IMG/VR virus record: IMGVR_UViG_3300046169_000069
Length of the DNA: 64,000 nucleotides
Reading direction: 5' to 3' (one strand)
From: a virus
The notes beneath the pieces were generated by a model, which was not told the DNA's origin, searched no databases, and saw only the letters and a program-made list of their open reading frames with translations. Positions 18,307-57,040 of this stretch are shown here, in pieces. Every line of letters starts with the position of its first letter. Positions within the stretch are counted from its first letter, which is position 1. A program made the position numbers and the translations under genes.

Positions 18307-19011
18307 TTAAACTGCAGAAATGTCGTCAAGAACCATCTCACGAAATTCTTCAGAAGTCTCTGACCAGTCAAATACATAAGAAACGGTAACACGCCAGTCA
18401 TCTGTAGATGCGGCATGATACATTAACTTTTCTGGTTCGTCATAGTGTCCGAAGTATGCAGCCTTACAAGTCCATACTCCTGGCGTGTCTTGACAGCGAA
18501 CAACTTCTTTCGTTTCTGGGTGAATGTAGTCAAAGTAACCAGAACCATCTTCTGAGTAAGAGAAGATAAGATTAAAACCTGGCGCATTTGCATTGTTATG
18601 CCATGAGATATACCCGCCCGGTGGATAGACTGCTGCAAGTGCATTGTGTTTAACAGACAAGAAGTTCATCATCTTGTCGTTTAGATCACGTAGGTGATGA
18701 GTCATGTCACGTTTAAAGATTGGGTCTGCATCTTTTTCAAACATCTTATGTGCGCGGTCAGATAGTTTGAAGTTATATCCAACCATCTCTTCGGGAAATC
18801 CATCATGTCCCTTTCCCATTGCAACGATGTCATTCATGTATCCTTCACCAACGTAGTATGAACGTTGACGAATATGTTCTGCTGCAGTCAAGTGACAGTT
18901 CTTTTCAAAACCCTGCATAGTATGCAATTTGGCATACTGGTCTAAAACCTCTAGCAACTCTGGGTTATTTACCTCTACGTGCTTTAGATATTGGTCGTTT
19001 ACCTGTGTCAT
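18307..19011 (-). CDS. Putative 2OG-Fe(II) oxygenase / cupin-fold hydroxylase
   Basis: YPPGGYISWHNN..NLIFSYS..GYF..MYHAA....RVTVSY matches the double-stranded beta-helix layout: HxN in place of HxD, distal His, 2OG-binding Arg. Confidence 0.6.
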   Translation of the reverse strand: MTQVNDQYLKHVEVNNPELLEVLDQYAKLHTMQGFEKNCHLTAAEHIRQRSYYVGEGYMNDIVAMGKGHDGFPEEMVGYNFKLSDRAHKMFEKDADPIFKRDMTHHLRDLNDKMMNFLSVKHNALAAVYPPGGYISWHNNANAPGFNLIFSYSEDGSGYFDYIHPETKEVVRCQDTPGVWTCKAAYFGHYDEPEKLMYHAASTDDWRVTVSYVFDWSETSEEFREMVLDDISAV

Positions 19012-19736
19012 ACGATTGGAGTATCCTTGTTCAACCCAGCCGAGAAGTGTCTTAAAATTACGGGTCCCGTCTCAGGTCGTGTTCTTGCCCAATTGAGGGC
19101 ATTGTAATAATTCCACCTCAAGTCATCATCAAAGATACCAACCTTGAGGTCCTTATACTTTTCTTCCTTCTCAGTTAACCACCAAAGCGAGAACTGATCC
19201 CAAGACTTGAGACTGTCTGCATACCCTTCTGGCCACCAAGAGTCGTTCATCTGTCTGAATGTCAAGTCCCACCAATCGTCCATGAATTCACGTACAATCG
19301 GTTTACTCATATCATACAAACAAACGCCACCGCATAATGTAAACTTCGCCATACCCTCTGGTGTAGAGAAGTCGCGTTCTGCGTAGATGTAATCTCTATC
19401 ATCTGTTAACGCAGAAAACACCACATCGTGGTCTTTCATCTCATCCCAAACTTTTACAATGTCTTCGTGCTCACATTCCATATCAGCATCAATGTACATT
19501 GTCAAGTCATACGGAGACTTTGCCATCCCCCACAACTTCGCACGGTAGTGATCATCACAAAAGATGATATCATCCGCGACTTCGCGACCACGATCATCAA
19601 TAAACCGTTCTTCGGTCACTAAACAAATCTTGCAATCCTCATAGTAATCTCTAATGGATTCGGCAAGATTCAATGCGTACAAATAAAAGTTGCGTTTCTT
19701 AGACGCAACTAACAAAAATCCTTTACTCTTTTCCAC
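19008..19736 (-). CDS. GT-A fold glycosyltransferase (GT8/GT77-like)
   Basis: SPYDLTMYIDAD (DxD), LCGGVCLY and WDQ motifs. Confidence 0.75.
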   Translation of the reverse strand: MEKSKGFLLVASKKRNFYLYALNLAESIRDYYEDCKICLVTEERFIDDRGREVADDIIFCDDHYRAKLWGMAKSPYDLTMYIDADMECEHEDIVKVWDEMKDHDVVFSALTDDRDYIYAERDFSTPEGMAKFTLCGGVCLYDMSKPIVREFMDDWWDLTFRQMNDSWWPEGYADSLKSWDQFSLWWLTEKEEKYKDLKVGIFDDDLRWNYYNALNWARTRPETGPVILRHFSAGLNKDTPIV

Positions 19737-38060: not shown

Positions 38061-39473
38061 CTATACGGTAATGACTATCTTAATGTCTTCTTTTTGTTCT
38101 TCGTGACGACGAATTCTTGAACGGTTCTCAATATATAGAACTTCTCCAGAAAACCGATCAATGGCATTTTCTAATGTTACGGAAACGACTACGCCATATT
38201 CTGACGCACCTTCATTGGATATTCCTTCACCTGAGTTGCCATTCTCACCAATCAGAAACGGTTCAAATCCAGTAGATAGGTTTTGATGATAGTAAATTTC
38301 ATTCCCAATTGAATCGTCTACATACGCTTTTGCACCAGAAGTCGTGCCCGTAATCAAAGTGCCTTTTGTGAAGGTTGATGTCCCCACCAGTGTTATTGAA
38401 GGCAAGACTTTATCAGACGTGTTGATATAAGGAATTGGATCGCCTTCTGCATCCAAATCTAATGACAATGGATTTTTGATAAGGCCCATTTGACGAAATG
38501 TATTATCAACAATAAATGTATCATTTACCGTTCCATCTGGTTTGGTATTGATCATTACAGAACTTGTTTTCAAATCATCTACTGGATCAAATCCAAGTCC
38601 TTTTTTGCTTGTAATAACAGGCTCTACCACAGAAGGTGTAGAACCACCAATTATTTCAAATGAGGCATACGTATATCCCGAACCATAGTTTGACATTTCT
38701 ACCTTAACAAGATTTCCGTTCTCATCAATTACCGCTACTGCGGTTGCTCCATTACCATCACCATGAATATTAACTGTTGGGGGACTAGATTGGGAATATC
38801 CAGTCCCGGCTGTTACAAGTCTGGTACGAATAATTTCGCCTGGGATAGCAGTATCTCGTACGGTAATCTGTAGATCTTCGATAGAGTCTCCCGAAGGCAA
38901 ATCTATCTCAGCTTTCTGCACAGGAATATGATTAGATGATAGGAATTGAAAAATGCGTTCCGGCGTTAGGGTGTATAAAAACTTCCATACATAACCGTCA
39001 GAAGTTATAAATGGTTTCCACCACTCACGCACATTATACATCGGTGCATTGGGGTCTGTCTCTGGACTCATTGGAGCATGTAGTCCCCAGTTTGGTTCAA
39101 CTGTAGATACTGCATCAGCTGGAGATATACATACATAAACTTCTTTTGCGTCATTTAAAACGTAGAATGGTGTCCAATTCTCATCAATATCAGACTTAAC
39201 TGAATCGTCCCATCCAGCATAGGTGGAACCAGAAGACCAGTTCACGCGTCTAGCAACCATAGTAGATCCTTCGACCTTCTTGATCGACTGTAGGTTGTTT
39301 CTGAACTCGCGTTCTTCCCGTAAACAATCAACTGGATCAATCACAGAGTCGGCTTGATTAAAGGTATCACATTTACCGATACCGATATAGTACTCATCGG
39401 AAGAATTTTGTATGTTTGATAGAAGATCTCGCGCCAGAGTTCTACTCATTGTTTGTCTTACTATAGCTGGCAT
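38061..39473 (-). CDS. gp8: Baseplate wedge subunit gp8-like
   Basis: RRVNWSSG..Y..WDD, FYVLN..VYVCI, DGYVWKFLYT, FRQMGLIKNP, SGEVLYIENR..QKEDIKIVI. Confidence 0.85.
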   Translation of the reverse strand: MPAIVRQTMSRTLARDLLSNIQNSSDEYYIGIGKCDTFNQADSVIDPVDCLREEREFRNNLQSIKKVEGSTMVARRVNWSSGSTYAGWDDSVKSDIDENWTPFYVLNDAKEVYVCISPADAVSTVEPNWGLHAPMSPETDPNAPMYNVREWWKPFITSDGYVWKFLYTLTPERIFQFLSSNHIPVQKAEIDLPSGDSIEDLQITVRDTAIPGEIIRTRLVTAGTGYSQSSPPTVNIHGDGNGATAVAVIDENGNLVKVEMSNYGSGYTYASFEIIGGSTPSVVEPVITSKKGLGFDPVDDLKTSSVMINTKPDGTVNDTFIVDNTFRQMGLIKNPLSLDLDAEGDPIPYINTSDKVLPSITLVGTSTFTKGTLITGTTSGAKAYVDDSIGNEIYYHQNLSTGFEPFLIGENGNSGEGISNEGASEYGVVVSVTLENAIDRFSGEVLYIENRSRIRRHEEQKEDIKIVITV

Positions 39474-39504: not shown

Positions 39505-39512
39505 TATTTATA
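39505..39512 (-). promoter_or_regulatory. T4-type late promoter TATAAATA
   Basis: tatttata, intergenic, upstream of gp8. Confidence 0.8.
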
Positions 39513-39518
39513 ATGGTT

Positions 39519-40397
39519 TTAAGAGTCTCTTAGAAAATTATTTAACCACACTTCTTTTTGGTGGTGAGACATCAAAAGGTCTTTATAGATTACTGGAAGT
39601 TCGTAGGGACTACTTCTATAATGATTGACATGACGCAAGGCCTCTTCTCGCAAAGGAGTTAGGTACTCATTGTAGTCATGAACTTTTTGTGCGCTACCTT
39701 CTGTTGTTCTATCAATACAATAGAAATCGCTTGACATCGATAAGAAATAACAAAGGTTTCCCTTTTGGTGTTCTGCCAAAAGTTTATATGTGTATGCATG
39801 ATCTTCGCCATTACCTATATCTACATTGAATCTATGTTCAGCCGACTTTCTACTTTGAAGAATAATAAAGTCTATTGAGACTGGACTTTCTTCTGTGAAC
39901 AGATGACTGACTTGAGGACCCATACTAGGTTTGGGAGCGCACATAGAAGTTCCCCATACACTCGCATGATATTTTTCATTTACCCACCAATAGTGGCCCG
40001 ACTCTAAGGCATAGTCACATATACAATCACATGGCACCACGCCTAGGACATCTATGCAAGGGAAGTGTTTGATGTGGTTATACAAAGACTGTAAATAAGA
40101 CGGATATAAAAAATCGTCTCCGTCCATTTGTGATACGTAATCTGCATCACTCTCTAAGAATACTTCTAGACACGCGTTCTTTCCCATTCCTGGCTTGCCA
40201 TTACTTTCGGTGTTTACAACGCGAAATGGTAGGTTGAGTGCGCATACATCTTCGTAGTATCCTTCATGAATACTATTAACTACTACAACGACTTCCCACT
40301 CTATAGGAGATATTTTCACAACACCTTGTGCGGATTTTACTAATCGTACTAGTTTAGGAATATCATTAGATGTCAATAGGGTTGTCAATAATTTCAT
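39519..40397 (-). CDS. GT-A fold glycosyltransferase (GT2-like)
   Basis: EVVVVVN, SNGKPGMGKN, DYVSQMDGDDFLYP (DxDD) and GED motifs. Confidence 0.75.
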   Translation of the reverse strand: MKLLTTLLTSNDIPKLVRLVKSAQGVVKISPIEWEVVVVVNSIHEGYYEDVCALNLPFRVVNTESNGKPGMGKNACLEVFLESDADYVSQMDGDDFLYPSYLQSLYNHIKHFPCIDVLGVVPCDCICDYALESGHYWWVNEKYHASVWGTSMCAPKPSMGPQVSHLFTEESPVSIDFIILQSRKSAEHRFNVDIGNGEDHAYTYKLLAEHQKGNLCYFLSMSSDFYCIDRTTEGSAQKVHDYNEYLTPLREEALRHVNHYRSSPYELPVIYKDLLMSHHQKEVWLNNFLRDS

Positions 40398-40399
40398 AA

Positions 40400-40954
40400 T
40401 TACTCCGCATGAAAAAAGAAGGTCTGGAACAGTCGGCCGTTGTGTTTATCGGTTCCAAATCCAGGCAATACACTACGATGGTAATACATAGAATCGTAAA
40501 TGACTATCCTATTATAAACATTCTTTGCTTCTGCGACGATCTCCCAATCGGATTCTAAAAACTCAAACTCATTGAAGTCGACCGCAGCGTCTGGGCTATG
40601 TCGCATGATGCCAGTAGGACCATGTCGATATATCGCAGTGCCGGAGTCTAGAGGAGCGTCGGGTGTTAAGTATATGACCGCAGCGTGTGACATCTCATCA
40701 TGGTGAACCCAAGTCCGAGAATCTTCTGTGGTATACTGAAAGGAAGTGTTATAACTATCAGTAGGAAACTGAGTTATCTTTTTTCCTATGATTGATTGAA
40801 AGTTTTCAATTAGGTGATCGTGATAACCACCATCGTTGGAACACGGTTGTGTTCTCCAGCCGGGATAGTTTCCGGAAACATTAAACTCTTGACTAAGAGC
40901 GTATTCTCTAACAGCATCTGGGTTAGAGTAAAAGTCTTCAATTATAGTAAACAT
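40400..40954 (-). CDS. 2OG-Fe(II) oxygenase (DUF6445 / prolyl-hydroxylase-like)
   Basis: IIEDFYSNPDAVR..YPGWRT, WVHHD (HxD), AAVIYLTP..SGT, NRIVIYDS..YH, GRLFQTFF. Confidence 0.8.
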   Translation of the reverse strand: MFTIIEDFYSNPDAVREYALSQEFNVSGNYPGWRTQPCSNDGGYHDHLIENFQSIIGKKITQFPTDSYNTSFQYTTEDSRTWVHHDEMSHAAVIYLTPDAPLDSGTAIYRHGPTGIMRHSPDAAVDFNEFEFLESDWEIVAEAKNVYNRIVIYDSMYYHRSVLPGFGTDKHNGRLFQTFFFHAE

Positions 40955-40973
40955 TATATACCTGTAGTTGGAA

Positions 40974-40991
40974 CCCCCTCTTGCGAGGGGG
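40974..40991 (-). terminator. GNRA-loop hairpin between the collagen gene and the oxygenase
   Basis: ccccctc-gcaa-gaggggg on the minus strand; poor U tract, so probably leaky. Confidence 0.45.
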
Positions 40992-40997
40992 AATAAA

Positions 40998-43769
40998 TTA
41001 GTTTATCTTACCAATCTTCACCCTCAATGCGTTGGAGTTGTCAAAAATGTCTATAGACGTTGACGAAAACTCAATTCGTTCATTGGGTGGTGTCCCTGTA
41101 TTTAGGAGACCACTCATATCAATAAATCCTTGGTTGTTCGTCAACTCTGTGAAGTCAGCGGTTGATGTTCCTGTTATATTCTGAGTAGATCTATACACTC
41201 GACCCGAATTAATATGCCACCAAACGTCGCCAACAAAAATCTTATCTACTGTACGGAATTGTTTAATTCCTGCAGAAGCGGTTGCGTTTACATTTGATGG
41301 AAACGTAGTAGACGTGTTGAACAACACTGCGTTACCGAATCCACCAACTGGGCCCTGTTGACCAGTTATACCCGCAACACCCGTAACGCCCTGTGGTCCA
41401 TCTGCTCCAGTGGCGCCTTGTTTTCCGGTAGCGCCTTGTTGTCCAGTAGCGCCGGTAGCACCGTCTGGTCCAGTAACACCGTCTGGTCCAGTAACACCTT
41501 GTTTTCCTTGAGGGCCTTGTTTTCCGGTAGCGCCTTGTTTTCCGGTAAGCGCCGGTAGCACCGTCTGGTCCAGTGATACCCTGTTTTCCAGTGGGGGCCC
41601 TGTGGTCCATCTGCTCCAGTACCGCCTTGTTTTCCAGTGGGGCCCCTGTGGCCCATCTGCTCCGTGGCACCCTGTTTTCCGGTAGCGCCTTGTTGTCCAG
41701 TAGCGCCGGTAGCACCGTCTGGTCCAGTACCGCCTTGTTTTCCAGTGGGGCCCTGTGGCCCATTATTACCAGTTTGCCCTTGAATGCCCTGTCTACCTTG
41801 AGGGCCTTGTGAACCTTGTGGGCCGTTGTTTCCGGTTTGCCCTTGAATGCCCTGTCTACCTTGAGGTCCTTGTGAACCTTGGGGACCATTGTTACCTGTC
41901 TGTCCTTGGATGCCCTGTCTACCTTGAGGTCCTTGTGAACCTTGTGGCCCATTATTACCTGTCTGGCCCTGAATACCTTGGGCACCAGTATTACCTTGAG
42001 CGCCTTGTGGGCCGTTGTTTCCGGTTTGTCCTGTTATGCCTTGAACGCCCTGAGAACCCTGTGCTCCTTGTGGCCCATTATTACCTGTCTGTCCTGTTAT
42101 GCCTTGAACACCTTGAACACCTTGTGGTCCCTGTGGACCATTATTACCTGTCTGGCCTGTTATGCCCTGAACACCTTGAACACCTTGAGGACCCTGTGGT
42201 CCATTGTTTCCGGTTTGACCTTGCAGACCTTGTGCTCCAGTATTACCCTGAGCCCCTTGTGGTCCATTATTACCAGTCTGTCCTTGCAGACCTTGTGGTC
42301 CGGTATTGCCTTGAGATCCTTGTGGGCCATTATTACCAGTCTGACCCTGAAGTCCTTGTGGACCAGTACTACCTTGAGATCCTTGTGGGCCATTATTACC
42401 AGTCTGACCCTGAATACCTTGAACGCCTTGTGCTCCTTGAGGGCCCGGTTCTCCCGTCAATCCTTGAGGGCCAGGTTCACCTGTGTTACCGATAGGACCC
42501 TGTGGGCCTGGCGTGGTACCCGCTGGTCCCTGAGGGCCCGGATCGCCTGTGTTACCGATAGGGCCCTGTGGGCCTGGCGTGGTACCCGCTGGTCCTTTAG
42601 GGCCCGGATCGCCCGTATTTCCAGTTGGACCATGTGGACCAGTTATACCCTGTATTCCTTGAACACCTTGTGGGCCTGGTGGGCCCGGATTACCTGTCAG
42701 TCCAGTTAGGCCTTGGGCGCCTTGTGGACCTTGAATACCAACTCCGCCTGGATTTCCTGTCAGTCCTTGTGGACCTGCTCCGCCGGTTGCACCTTGGGCA
42801 CCAACCTCGCCTGGGTTTCCCTGTAATCCCAAAGGTCCAGTATTTCCTTGTGGTCCTTGAGCACCAACCTCGCCTGGGTTTCCGGTTAGACCAGTGGTTC
42901 CCGTTGCGCCTTGAACACCTTGCGGTCCAACTTCGCCCGGATTACCTGTCAATCCAGTTATACCCTGAGAACCCTGTGGCCCTTGTGCTCCAACTTCGCC
43001 TGGGTTTCCAGTAAGACCCGTTATACCCTGAGAACCTTGTGGTCCTTGAGCACCAACCTCGCCTGGATTTCCTGTAAGACCTGTTATGCCTTGAGGACCC
43101 TGATTACCTTGAGGACCAACTTCGCCGGGATTTCCCGTCAATCCAGTTATACCCTGCGGTCCTTGATTACCTTGAGGACCAACTTCGCCTGGATTTCCTG
43201 TAAGACCTGTTATGCCTTGTGGTCCCTGATTACCCTGCGGGCCAACTTCGCCTGGATTTCCGGTGAGGCCCGTTATACCCTGTGGTCCCTGATTACCCTG
43301 CGGGCCAACACCGCCTGGGTTTCCGGTTAAACCCGTTATGCCTTGAGGACCCTGAATACCTTGAGGTCCTATCGGACCAAATCCACCTTGGCCGCCAAGA
43401 GGGACCCTGCATTCCGATTGGTCCCTGCGGGCCAACACCGCCAATCTCAGAGTTGTCAATAAGGTCATTGATATCTTGAATTTCTTGGACCAACCCGCCG
43501 ATTTGGGTATCATGTCCCCCGACACGAACGTCAAGCAAATTAATAGCATGAGTGTTTGCAACGACTTCGTCTAATGTAACGCCATCAAAAGCACTGTCTA
43601 TAGAGTCAGTCACATACTTAGATAGAAACTCTAAGGACATGCCCTCTTCTAATTTTGTGATTTCATAAAGTTCTAGAAAGTTAGCATTAATCTTTTCACT
43701 AGCTTCGCGAAGCGTATCGCCTTTACCGTCGTTTGCTGATTGACCCGTGTTTAGAATTTTTCTTGTCAT
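40998..43769 (-). CDS. Collagen-like tail fibre (~920 aa, ~230 Gly-X-Y triplets) with a T4 gp9/gp10-type N-terminal baseplate anchor; several apparent frameshifts
   Basis: ORFs 43293..43769, 41366..43561 and 40998..41561 join. N-terminus [24 protein letters not shown]; C-terminus LRVKIGKIN. Confidence 0.85.
41335..43443 (-). repeat. Collagen Gly-X-Y array with 63-nt and 54-nt higher-order repeats
   Basis: Blocks ([21 protein letters not shown])n, ([10 protein letters not shown]..)n and (GKQGAT..)n. Confidence 0.9.
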
Positions 43770-46565: not shown

Positions 46566-47006
46566 TTATCTTGACCTTAAAATGGTTAAGTCCATAGTAA
46601 CGACCTTTGGTGTATTCACAACAGCAAAAACCAGCTTCACACTAAGACTGTAATTAGTTTCGTTAAATCGCGCTGTAACTTGACGTACTTTTGCACGAGG
46701 TTCATCATTTTGTATAGCAAGTTTAATAACGTCTTCAATATCACTTAAGTCGAACTCTGTAGTTAAAGAAAACAAAAGTTTCTCTAACCCGCCTCCAAAG
46801 TATGGACGAAAGGGTACAGAACCTTTCTCTGTCAATAAAAGATTCTTGACTGACTGACGTACTGCAGCTGCATCGGTCTTCTTGTAAACGTCGCCAGATG
46901 TCTTACGTGCGAACGTGCAATCAATATCCGAATACTCACGGTCAATAGTTACCGTGATCGGTTTATTCTGCAGGTTTCCGTCTTGTGTAGAAAATACGCT
47001 TGCCAT
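46566..47006 (-). CDS. gp25: Baseplate wedge subunit gp25
   Basis: YSDID..F..DAAAVRQSVKNLLLT.KG..PFRP.FG..L..LLF..EPR. Confidence 0.9.
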   Translation of the reverse strand: MASVFSTQDGNLQNKPITVTIDREYSDIDCTFARKTSGDVYKKTDAAAVRQSVKNLLLTEKGSVPFRPYFGGGLEKLLFSLTTEFDLSDIEDVIKLAIQNDEPRAKVRQVTARFNETNYSLSVKLVFAVVNTPKVVTMDLTILRSR

Positions 47007-47027: not shown

Positions 47028-47035
47028 TATTTATA
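47028..47035 (-). promoter_or_regulatory. T4-type late promoter TATAAATA
   Basis: tatttata overlapping the upstream stop, before gp25. Confidence 0.8.
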
Positions 47036-56149: not shown

Positions 56150-56858
56150 ATGGCATTACCAAAACTTAACTCGTTACCTGTGTATGAGATGACCGTTCCG
56201 TCTACTGGACAGAATGTGACATACCGACCCTTTCTAGTTAAAGAACAGAAAAATCTATTAATTGCATTTGAAGCTTCAAAACCGGCGCGATTTAGTTCGT
56301 GCGGTACAACGCACCATTGAGGCGTGTGTGGAAGATGATATTAACAGCAACCTCACGACGTTTGACGTTGACTACATGTTCACTAAGATTCGTTCTAAGT
56401 CGGTCGGTGAGACCGCTGACATTCTCGTACCGTGTTCAGAGTGTGAAACTAAAAACGATGTCAAGGTTGATCTAGATGACGTAGTTGTCGACTCTGAGAT
56501 TCCAGAGATGATGATTCAAATTACCGAAGATATATCTGTACAGATGAAGTTTCCGACATACGACGACTTCTTAGGGAACACAAATCTGCTAGACAGTACA
56601 ACGGTCACTGAAGCTTTATTACAGTTGATCATAACATGTATGGATTCTATATTGACCGAAGAAGAAAGATACTCTTTAGGCGATGAGTCGGTTGAAGATG
56701 TACTTAACTTTTTGGAATCAATGACCAGTGACCAGTTTGAAAAAGTCTCTCAGTTTGCGAACAACATTCCAAACTTAACAAAAACAATCTCATTCTCGTG
56801 CGAGTCTTGTGGCCACGAAAACGAAAAAACATTGAAAGGACTTGACGATTTTTTTTAA
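56150..56858 (+). CDS. gp26: Baseplate hub subunit gp26-like, one apparent frameshift
   Basis: MALPKL..YE.TVPSTG..V.YRPFLVKEQK joins 56262..56858 after removing one T at AAGCTT ~56276; FDVDYMF.KIRSKSVGE and two CxxC pairs. Confidence 0.8.
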
Positions 56859-57037
56859 TTAACCTCTCTCACGACAACCTGACCAACTACTATCAGGTTA
56901 ATTTTCAGTTGATGAACAATTTCAACTATTCGTTGGCAGAGGTGGAAACAATGCTCCCGTGGGAGAGAGAGATTTACTTAACACTATTAGTAGATGACAT
57001 AACAGAAAAAAATCAAAGGGCGAAACAAAAAGGATAA
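56849..57037 (+). CDS. gp51-like small baseplate hub assembly protein in the -1 frame of gp26
   Basis: Hand translation LINLSHDNLTNYYQVNFQLMNNFNYSLAEVETMLPWEREIYLTLL..; no ATG before the conserved part. Confidence 0.7.
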   Translation, partial: FFLINLSHDNLTNYYQVNFQLMNNFNYSLAEVETMLPWEREIYLTLLVDDITEKNQRAKQKG

Positions 57038-57040
57038 AAA

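Follow-up and report, generated by a model that had tools for sequence, protein, structure and literature searches.

Gene Organization of the Locus

The IMG/VR virus record IMGVR_UViG_3300046169_000069 of a marine T4-like phage, of which a stretch of 64,000 nucleotides was analyzed (hereafter the window), carries a baseplate fibre gene with a collagen-like shaft, followed directly by genes for a DUF6445 oxygenase of the 2-oxoglutarate (2OG)/Fe(II) type and a GT2-like glycosyltransferase. We consider it probable, from gene content and context, that the two enzymes are dedicated to the hydroxylation and glycosylation of the shaft encoded beside them. The three genes lie on the minus strand, and the coordinates given for them by an initial annotation made from the sequence were confirmed (Table 1). 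All genes of the region lie on that strand and read gp25-like, gp6, gp7-like, fibre, DUF6445, GT2-like, gp8 and a 1972-aa protein, the homologues of which carry DUF4815 in related contigs. A single base separates the gp7-like gene from the fibre gene, the GT2 gene begins 2 bases past the oxygenase stop and the enzyme genes overlap in relatives. A megablast search of the cassette against GenBank phages gave zero matches.

Table 1. Features of the baseplate fibre locus in the window.
Feature	Position	Strand	Remarks
Late promoter motif TATAAATA, T4-type	47028-47035	-	just 5' of gp25-like gene
gp25-like gene	46566-47006	-	
gp7-like baseplate wedge protein, 316 aa	43771-44721	-	Pfam PF23786, 3.1e-18; PHROG baseplate wedge families
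Baseplate fibre gene	40998-43769	-	gp9/gp10-like N-domain, collagen-like shaft, C-terminal globular domain
N-terminal attachment domain of fibre	~43434-43769	-	
Extra C in CCC run	43403	-	frame shift between N-terminal domain and collagen; not in contig L025
Collagen-like shaft	~41346-43433	-	~232 Gly-X-Y triplets
Four homopolymer indels	41547-41665	-	base missing at ~41663; extra bases at 41639-46, 41593-97 and 41547-48
C-terminal globular domain of fibre	40998-41345	-	~115 residues
DUF6445 2OG/Fe(II) oxygenase, 184 aa	40400-40954	-	PF20043, 1.7e-12
GT2-like GT-A glycosyltransferase, 292 aa	39519-40397	-	PF00535, 26.4 bits
Late promoter motif TATAAATA	39505-39512	-	between GT2 stop and gp8 start
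gp8-like baseplate wedge protein	38061-39473	-	downstream slot border; PF09215, 1.6e-6; 64% identical to Phage C48C1 baseplate wedge subunit

Chance alone would give 2.6 copies of the motif TATAAATA; the window has 11, most of them on the minus strand and spread over 16981-60059. The copy before the gp25-like gene probably marks where transcription of the unit with the cassette begins. The next one precedes gp8, and a scan of the window found no minus-strand copy between the two; the enzyme genes therefore probably share a late transcript with those of the wedge and the fibre.

Collagen Shafts and Enzyme Genes in the Fibre Slot

The slot between the gp7-like gene and gp8 was gathered from viral and metagenome contigs, yielding 105 complete slots, or 66 after dereplication, which were classed by their Gly-X-Y content and by homology to five queries (DUF6445, GT2, a Capsule_synth-like protein, a 2OG-FeII_Oxy_4 oxygenase and an MptE-like protein). 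Enzyme genes were present in 17 of the 17 dereplicated slots with a collagen shaft and in none of the 49 non-collagen slots, leaving zero discordant cases. Nearly all of these 49 hold one open reading frame (ORF) of ~190-1570 aa, mostly of ~300 (L164 has three ORFs, and in two slots no ORF was found), and no enzyme-like extra ORFs were found in them. The fibre had initially been described as interrupting the gp6-gp7-gp8 order, a description that has to be abandoned, since a protein with the gp10-type N-terminal domain stands there in all but two of the dereplicated relatives. Judged from these relatives, the fibre slot is ancestral and the additions are the two enzyme genes only.

The gp8 tree shows three changes in collagen and three in the enzymes, which always coincide. 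Two of the comparisons are near-isogenic. L029, which has collagen and a Capsule_synth-like gene, is separated by gp8 branches of only 0.017 and 0.023 from Phage C48C1, the GenBank genome nearest to the window (gp8 64% identical to that of the window), in which the fibre, of 1568 aa, is non-collagen and enzymes are absent. Likewise, L160 carries collagen with the DUF6445+GT2 pair, whereas G001, with flanks 72-74% identical to the window at the DNA level, has in the slot a 1291-aa fibre with a non-collagen repeat shaft, no enzymes and gp8 directly after it.

Three enzyme sets were distinguished in the collagen slots. DUF6445+GT2 occupies most of them. In L027 and L029 there is instead a single protein of 331-336 aa matching Capsule_synth (a KpsC/KpsS-type transferase), and L065 has a 2OG-FeII_Oxy_4 oxygenase together with a 449-aa protein that gives weak MptE-like/sialyltransferase-like matches and contains a methyltransferase domain. 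The gp8 tree places L065 and L087 as sisters (two adaptor proteins 69% and 74% identical, gp8 56%), and at the position of the oxygenase-transferase pair of L065, L087 carries DUF6445+GT2, a non-orthologous displacement. This displacement argues that selection acts on the function itself, namely the pairing of an oxygenase with a sugar transferase behind a collagen shaft. The initial annotation had proposed a general module made of a fibre plus its own modifying enzymes, and the proposal gains from the finding that non-orthologous enzyme sets hold the same position after collagen shafts. The parallel that it drew with another cassette of the window (18307-19736) was not reproduced with Pfam (E ≤ 0.01) or PHROGs (E ≤ 0.001), which assign neither of the ORFs there to a family.

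The Fibre and Its Shaft

The N-terminus of the fibre matches T4_gp9_10_N (PF07880) marginally (25.1 bits against a cut-off of 25) and PHROG 677, "baseplate wedge tail fiber protein connector", at 4e-11. Together with the position between the gp7-like gene and gp8, which is kept in relatives, this identifies a baseplate-attached fibre of the T4 gp9/gp10 type. The shaft belongs to the collagen repeat family PF01391 (7.8e-15) by its long Gly-X-Y repeats. About 230 triplets had been claimed, and ~232 are indeed counted once the indels described below are read through, 205 of them in runs of at least six; no other collagen-like stretch was found in the window. The reported composition was seen as well, with Pro in 7% and Thr in 30% of the Y positions (hereafter Y-Pro, Y-Thr, and so on) and a Lys-containing GKQ block at the C-terminal end. 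From 41735 to 43306 the shaft is built of repeat units of seven triplets (63 bp), in each of which one triplet carries X-Asn (GNP, GNN, GNQ, GNT).

The Gly-X-Y register is broken by one residue at two GTTPG sites (~42512-42600 and ~42578-42640, minus strand). A mid-shaft break of one residue is also kept in collagens that accompany different enzyme sets (the L010 and L027 fibres, with GPAGTEPGPPG in L027), and it may represent a built-in kink or hinge. Shafts are also swapped: the N-terminal attachment domain and the last ~25 residues (...I.IYDGS..RVKIG.L) are homologous or similar among fibres in which the middle is exchanged (G001, L003:5384-9259; C48C1, L079:4242-8948), which consists of collagen in some and, in others, of a long repeat that is not collagen and has a period of ~70 residues.

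The Oxygenase and the Glycosyltransferase

The predicted oxygenase motif HxD..H..R was borne out, as H84-x-D86, H159 and R174 are invariant in 46 sequences. The structural model (predicted local distance difference test, pLDDT, 95) is a double-stranded beta-helix like that of prolyl hydroxylases, and the HxD...H triad, the basic residue and the fold place the protein in the 2OG/Fe(II) oxygenase superfamily. More than 90 PDB chains align with the model at Z ≥ 8, and nearly all the matches listed are 2OG oxygenases. Exhaustive structural comparison, which the initial annotation had proposed against prolyl 4-hydroxylases (P4H) and lysyl hydroxylases, puts protein prolyl hydroxylases at the top of the matches (Trichoplax PHD, TaPHD, Z 14.2; OGFOD1, 14.0; Pseudomonas PPHD, 14.0). 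Collagen P4Hs and lysyl hydroxylases follow at Z 11.4-12.6, including the PBCV-1 collagen P4H (vCPH, 12.6), mimivirus L230 lysyl hydroxylase (11.9), human C-P4H-II (11.9) and LH3 (11.4), along with Chlamydomonas P4H (CrP4H, 12.1) and P3H1 (10.5). At the sequence level, Pfam finds DUF6445 alone and no membership of the P4H family (P4Hc/PF13640-type), a profile search against all PDB sequences gave nothing below E = 0.27, and the protein does not belong with PLOD or the L230 lysyl hydroxylase, to which it has no sequence match and a fold similarity of only Z 11.4-11.9.

The initial call of a DxDD glycosyltransferase also stands. The GT2 protein scores above the PF00535 cut-off of 23.3 bits, D92-G-D94-D95 is invariant and the model (pLDDT 94) has a GT-A fold; PF00535, the DxD motif and a fold similarity of Z 13.6-15.7 thus make it a GT2-like GT-A enzyme. 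Its best structural matches include CgT (5hea, Z 15.7), TarS (15.2), chondroitin polymerase, SpsA and the protein O-GalNAc transferases (ppGalNAc-T, 13.6-13.8). It is not a GT25 enzyme (COLGALT1 or the N-domain of L230), since Pfam at E ≤ 0.01 returns PF00535 only and the PDB profile search gave no match, and PHROGs has no family for it. The tight family around it counts 127 proteins, after which E-values fall from 1e-60 to 1e-20. As neither enzyme matches any PDB sequence, their membership of solved families is assigned by fold alone. No transmembrane segment was found in the oxygenase or the transferase, both of which are predicted to be soluble.

Homologues of the oxygenase have been named otherwise. 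PHROGs labels them "minor coat protein" (PHROG 1644), as do RefSeq phage records, for example in S-SSM7 (L004:7989-8495) and Syn9 (gp52, L006:5983-6594), a name for which no support was found, and the DSL-LC02 homologue is annotated as "FkbM family methyltransferase". In both cases a 2OG/Fe(II) oxygenase seems to have been misannotated.

The Enzyme Pair Outside the Slot

The linkage between the pair and collagen genes elsewhere had been set beforehand as a check by which the idea could fail, and it held in every complete slot examined and in four other fibre architectures. DUF6445+GT2 stands directly after collagen-bearing fibres of 2446 aa in L126 and 1252 aa in L022/L141, and after a 1913-aa tail protein with a stretch of 108 triplets in L130. 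In L129 the pair lies 1.1 kb before a collagen protein, which is thus downstream of it and not upstream; two DUF6445 paralogues flank the GT2 gene there (L129:8372-10406). In the cultured freshwater Synechococcus phage DSL-LC02, a collagen-like protein and a tail fibre enclose DUF6445, a mannosyltransferase and an FkbM-type methyltransferase. All 12 clusters of GT2 relatives in which DUF6445 is missing fall into a single clade, and in none of them is there collagen nearby. DUF6445 paralogues are also present in Syn9, S-SSM7, P-HM1 and HTVC008M. At L019:6677-9283, as in L020 and L021, the pair lies between Glyco_tranf_2_4 and Cupin_2 genes, among replication and lysis genes. Judged from this distribution, DUF6445 as a whole is not specific to collagen, and the subfamily paired with GT2 is largely so.

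Candidate Acceptor Residues

Triplet composition was compared across 16 collagens linked to the DUF6445+GT2 pair. The initial annotation had pointed to Y-Pro, Y-Thr and Lys as targets, a suggestion that fared poorly, as all three vary widely among collagens that have the same pair. Y-Pro, and with it the number of X-Pro-Gly sites, ranges over 0-9% (0-1% in L114, L126 and L088), Y-Thr over 1-30% and Lys over 0-8%. In the shaft of the window Y-Lys amounts to 0.5%, and the Lys of the GKQ block is in the X position, not in the Y position on which lysyl hydroxylases act. Less variation is seen in Y-Gln (43-65%), X-Pro (mostly 8-46%) and X-Asn (4-20%), of which L129 has nearly none; in 14 of the 16 collagens X-Asn returns at intervals of seven triplets.

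X-Asn and X-Pro may be regarded as candidate acceptors of the pair. As a universal acceptor X-Asn was rejected, because it reaches only 1% in L129 and amounts to 12% in L029, a collagen without the pair; its seven-triplet spacing may simply reflect the 63-bp repeat units. X-Thr is found at 12-37% with the other two enzyme sets and at no more than 7% with DUF6445+GT2, a shift with the enzyme set that fits enzyme-substrate matching without proving it.

Frame Breaks in the Record

The collagen gene had been described as a single gene, and it is real and correctly placed; in this record, though, its reading frame is interrupted, leaving ORFs at 43293-43769, 41366-43561 and 40998-41561, which span three frames. 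Five single-base indels in homopolymers (Table 1) break the gene, and a one-base correction at each restores the Gly-X-Y continuity. Those at the C-terminal end carry the GKQ/GAD repeat block through all three frames. The gene of gp6, which is an essential protein, is likewise present as three ORFs, covering positions 3-79, 86-324 and 334-568 of PHROG 219.

A copy for comparison is offered by the independent contig L025, 99.76% identical to the window over 47549-42610, which lacks exactly four window bases in 4.9 kb: 46329, 45632 and 44818 in gp6 and 43403 in the fibre. Its gp6 is a single 613-aa ORF and its fibre is open from the N-terminal domain into the collagen. This comparison covers position 43403 and the gp6 indels, the four C-terminal sites of the fibre having no near-identical counterpart. 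The intact homologue P0121 has 1100 aa and the unbroken collagen ORFs of relatives have 900-1400 aa. Because L025 is without the extra bases and the collagen ORFs of relatives are intact, the indels were treated as errors of the record, which they probably are, or at most lesions of one isolate. Programmed frameshifting was considered and rejected, as the sites are ordinary short homopolymers, the shifts go in both directions, gp6 is broken alike and L025 lacks the extra bases. Frameshift-based readings elsewhere in the record, such as at the T8 run around 56840-57040, call for caution.

Proposed Function and Alternative Explanations

The fibre would be anchored in the baseplate via its gp10-like N-terminal domain, with the shaft forming a collagen-like triple helix, and the two small soluble enzymes would be produced with it from the late promoter and would act on the shaft within the cytoplasm of the host, either ahead of assembly or in the course of it. 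With Fe(II), 2-oxoglutarate and O2, the DUF6445 oxygenase would place a hydroxyl on a side chain of the repeat. The transferase would then add a sugar from a nucleotide sugar, most simply to the new hydroxyl (hydroxylation followed by glycosylation), or else to Thr. The likely benefit would be a triple helix that is more stable, more hydrated or more resistant to proteases, or a glycan coat that alters the binding of the fibre. We infer, rather than observe, the collagen as substrate, the order of the reactions, the residue, the sugar and the benefit.

Several observations weigh against this proposal. The three independent contrasts on the gp8 tree are all concordant and, with a sign test of p = 0.25, non-significant, as shared descent limits the statistics; the GT2 tree offers a single change between paired and unpaired states and thus no valid statistic. 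The pair in L019-L021 has no collagen within ~8 kb, which is the one clear exception to the collagen link. At 25-37% identity, distant paralogues of DUF6445 are found within sugar clusters or oxygenase arrays in S-SSM7, Sf-FS3 and Syn9, and collagen is absent from the whole genomes of S-SSM7, Syn9 and S-WAM2 despite their DUF6445 paralogues. No candidate acceptor residue is common to all the collagens linked to the pair, that of L129 having almost no Pro, Thr, Lys or Asn. As to the folds, small-molecule oxygenases also reach Z of about 12 against the DUF6445 model (PolD 12.4, PasI 12.0), within 2 Z units of the prolyl hydroxylases, and the fold of the transferase says nothing about its acceptor.

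The two enzymes could also, as the initial annotation had it, act on the same shaft independently and in parallel, the oxygenase hydroxylating Y-Pro or Y-Lys and so stabilizing the helix as in animals, and the transferase O-glycosylating Y-Thr as in BclA or the cuticle collagen of vent worms. The Y-Pro and Y-Thr of the window shaft (7% and 30%) and the P4H-like fold of the oxygenase agree with this, and the transferase standing alone in L027 and L029 shows that glycosylation without a hydroxylase is viable. Other collagens with the same pair, however, drop to 0-1% Y-Pro and 1-4% Y-Thr, with Y-Lys at 0-8%, and the two genes remain adjacent even away from collagen (L019), which suggests consecutive steps. 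We therefore find parallel action unlikely, albeit the strongest of the alternatives. Somewhat less likely again is that the cassette remodels the host surface, with the transferase, aided by the oxygenase, altering lipopolysaccharide or another envelope glycan and so blocking superinfection or re-adsorption of the progeny. Glycosyltransferases in the host-recognition clusters of pelagi- and cyanomyophages have been read as modifiers of the O-chain (PMC7029224), and the distant DUF6445 homologues of S-SSM7 and Sf-FS3 are found within lipopolysaccharide-like sugar clusters. Such a role predicts no dependence on the type of shaft, whereas the enzymes accompany every collagen shaft of the slot survey and no other; moreover, neither protein has membrane segments, their genes belong to a late structural operon and the pair moves with collagen into unrelated fibre genes.

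It is also conceivable that the enzymes are hitch-hiking cargo, collagen repeats being recombination hot spots where unrelated genes land without any action on the fibre. The slot is indeed recombinogenic, with shafts exchanged between conserved N- and C-termini, and the enzyme sets differ among lineages. Against this, the three cargo sets do not differ in functional kind (oxygenase plus sugar transferase, or sugar transferase alone), no other sort of gene was seen in the collagen-bearing slots, and the swapped non-collagen shafts are repeats too and none of them has cargo, so that we give this explanation very little credence. Dedicated modification of the shaft by the pair is the function that we favor. 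A broader and more tentative reading is that the collagen-like fibres of phages undergo post-translational hydroxylation and glycosylation by dedicated modules matched to their substrates and recruited at least three times from unrelated families, with an acceptor perhaps novel among collagens; we regard it as possible, short of probable.

If the proposal is correct, collagen modification would occur in bacterial viruses, by convergence from unrelated enzymes. DUF6445 would obtain its first function, and part of the excess of 2OG/Fe(II) oxygenases in marine phages would be accounted for. For a class of "auxiliary" phage genes, the role would become structural and no longer metabolic or host-directed, and host-range prediction and fibre engineering would have to reckon with a glycan layer.

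Comparison with Known Systems

Phage fibres of the collagen-like type, first described in 1998, are taken to fold as bacterial collagens are, with neither hydroxyproline nor sugars. Cyanophages and other marine phages carry many orphan 2OG-Fe(II) oxygenases, and marine phages are also rich in glycosyltransferases with no assigned substrate. Our literature searches returned no report on DUF6445 and none that ties phage collagen fibres to hydroxylases or transferases. Cytoplasmic hydroxylation followed by glycosylation is familiar from Skp1 of Dictyostelium and Toxoplasma, where the prolyl hydroxylase PhyA and then the GT-A transferase Gnt1 act on one Pro of a regulatory protein. The cassette resembles that pathway in combining a PHD-type 2OG hydroxylase with a soluble GT-A enzyme (DUF6445 model, Z 12.5 to Dictyostelium PHD, PhyA 6T8M). 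The Skp1 pathway differs in addressing a single Pro and no repetitive structural fibre, and the transferases are unrelated.

Marine myophages with collagen repeats in their fibre proteins have been described, and the glycosyltransferases of their fibre clusters were read as modifiers of the host lipopolysaccharide (PMC7029224). These pelagi- and cyanomyophages belong to the same ecological group and place such genes similarly near fibre genes, but transferases or oxygenases were not tied there to collagen shafts. BclA, the collagen-like glycoprotein in the exosporium of Bacillus anthracis, bears O-linked sugars on GXT triplets (Daubenspeck et al., 2004, as cited in PMC9614988). Like the fibre of the window, with its 30% Y-Thr, it is a prokaryotic collagen-like filament; unlike it, it is not a virus fibre, has no hydroxylase step and depends on different enzymes in a rhamnose/anthrose cluster.

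A close viral parallel in design is mimivirus L230 (PDB 6AX6), which hydroxylates and then glucosylates Lys on collagen-like proteins (Luther et al., 2011, as cited in PMC9614988). In both viruses, collagen-like structural proteins are encoded alongside a glycosyltransferase and a 2OG/Fe(II) hydroxylase, a predicted one in the window, and the DUF6445 model matches the hydroxylase domain of L230 at Z 11.9. L230, however, is one fused protein, homologous to PLOD and GLT25D1, and acts on Y-Lys, whereas the cassette has two separate small proteins with no sequence link to it, a shaft in which Y-Lys is almost absent and a bacterial host. With animal collagen maturation (C-P4H, P3H, PLOD/LH3, COLGALT1) the cassette would share the logic of hydroxylation followed by glycosylation, and it has a similar oxygenase fold. 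It differs in its non-orthologous enzymes, in having no endoplasmic reticulum, protein disulfide isomerase subunit or peptide-substrate-binding domain, in a transferase that is GT2-like and not GT25, and in a collagen that is poor in Y-Pro and rich in Y-Gln. The animal-like maturation pathway suggested by the initial annotation thus survives as an analogy, given the fold resembling P4H and lysyl hydroxylases, and not as homology, there being no sequence link to P4H or PLOD and no GT25 transferase.

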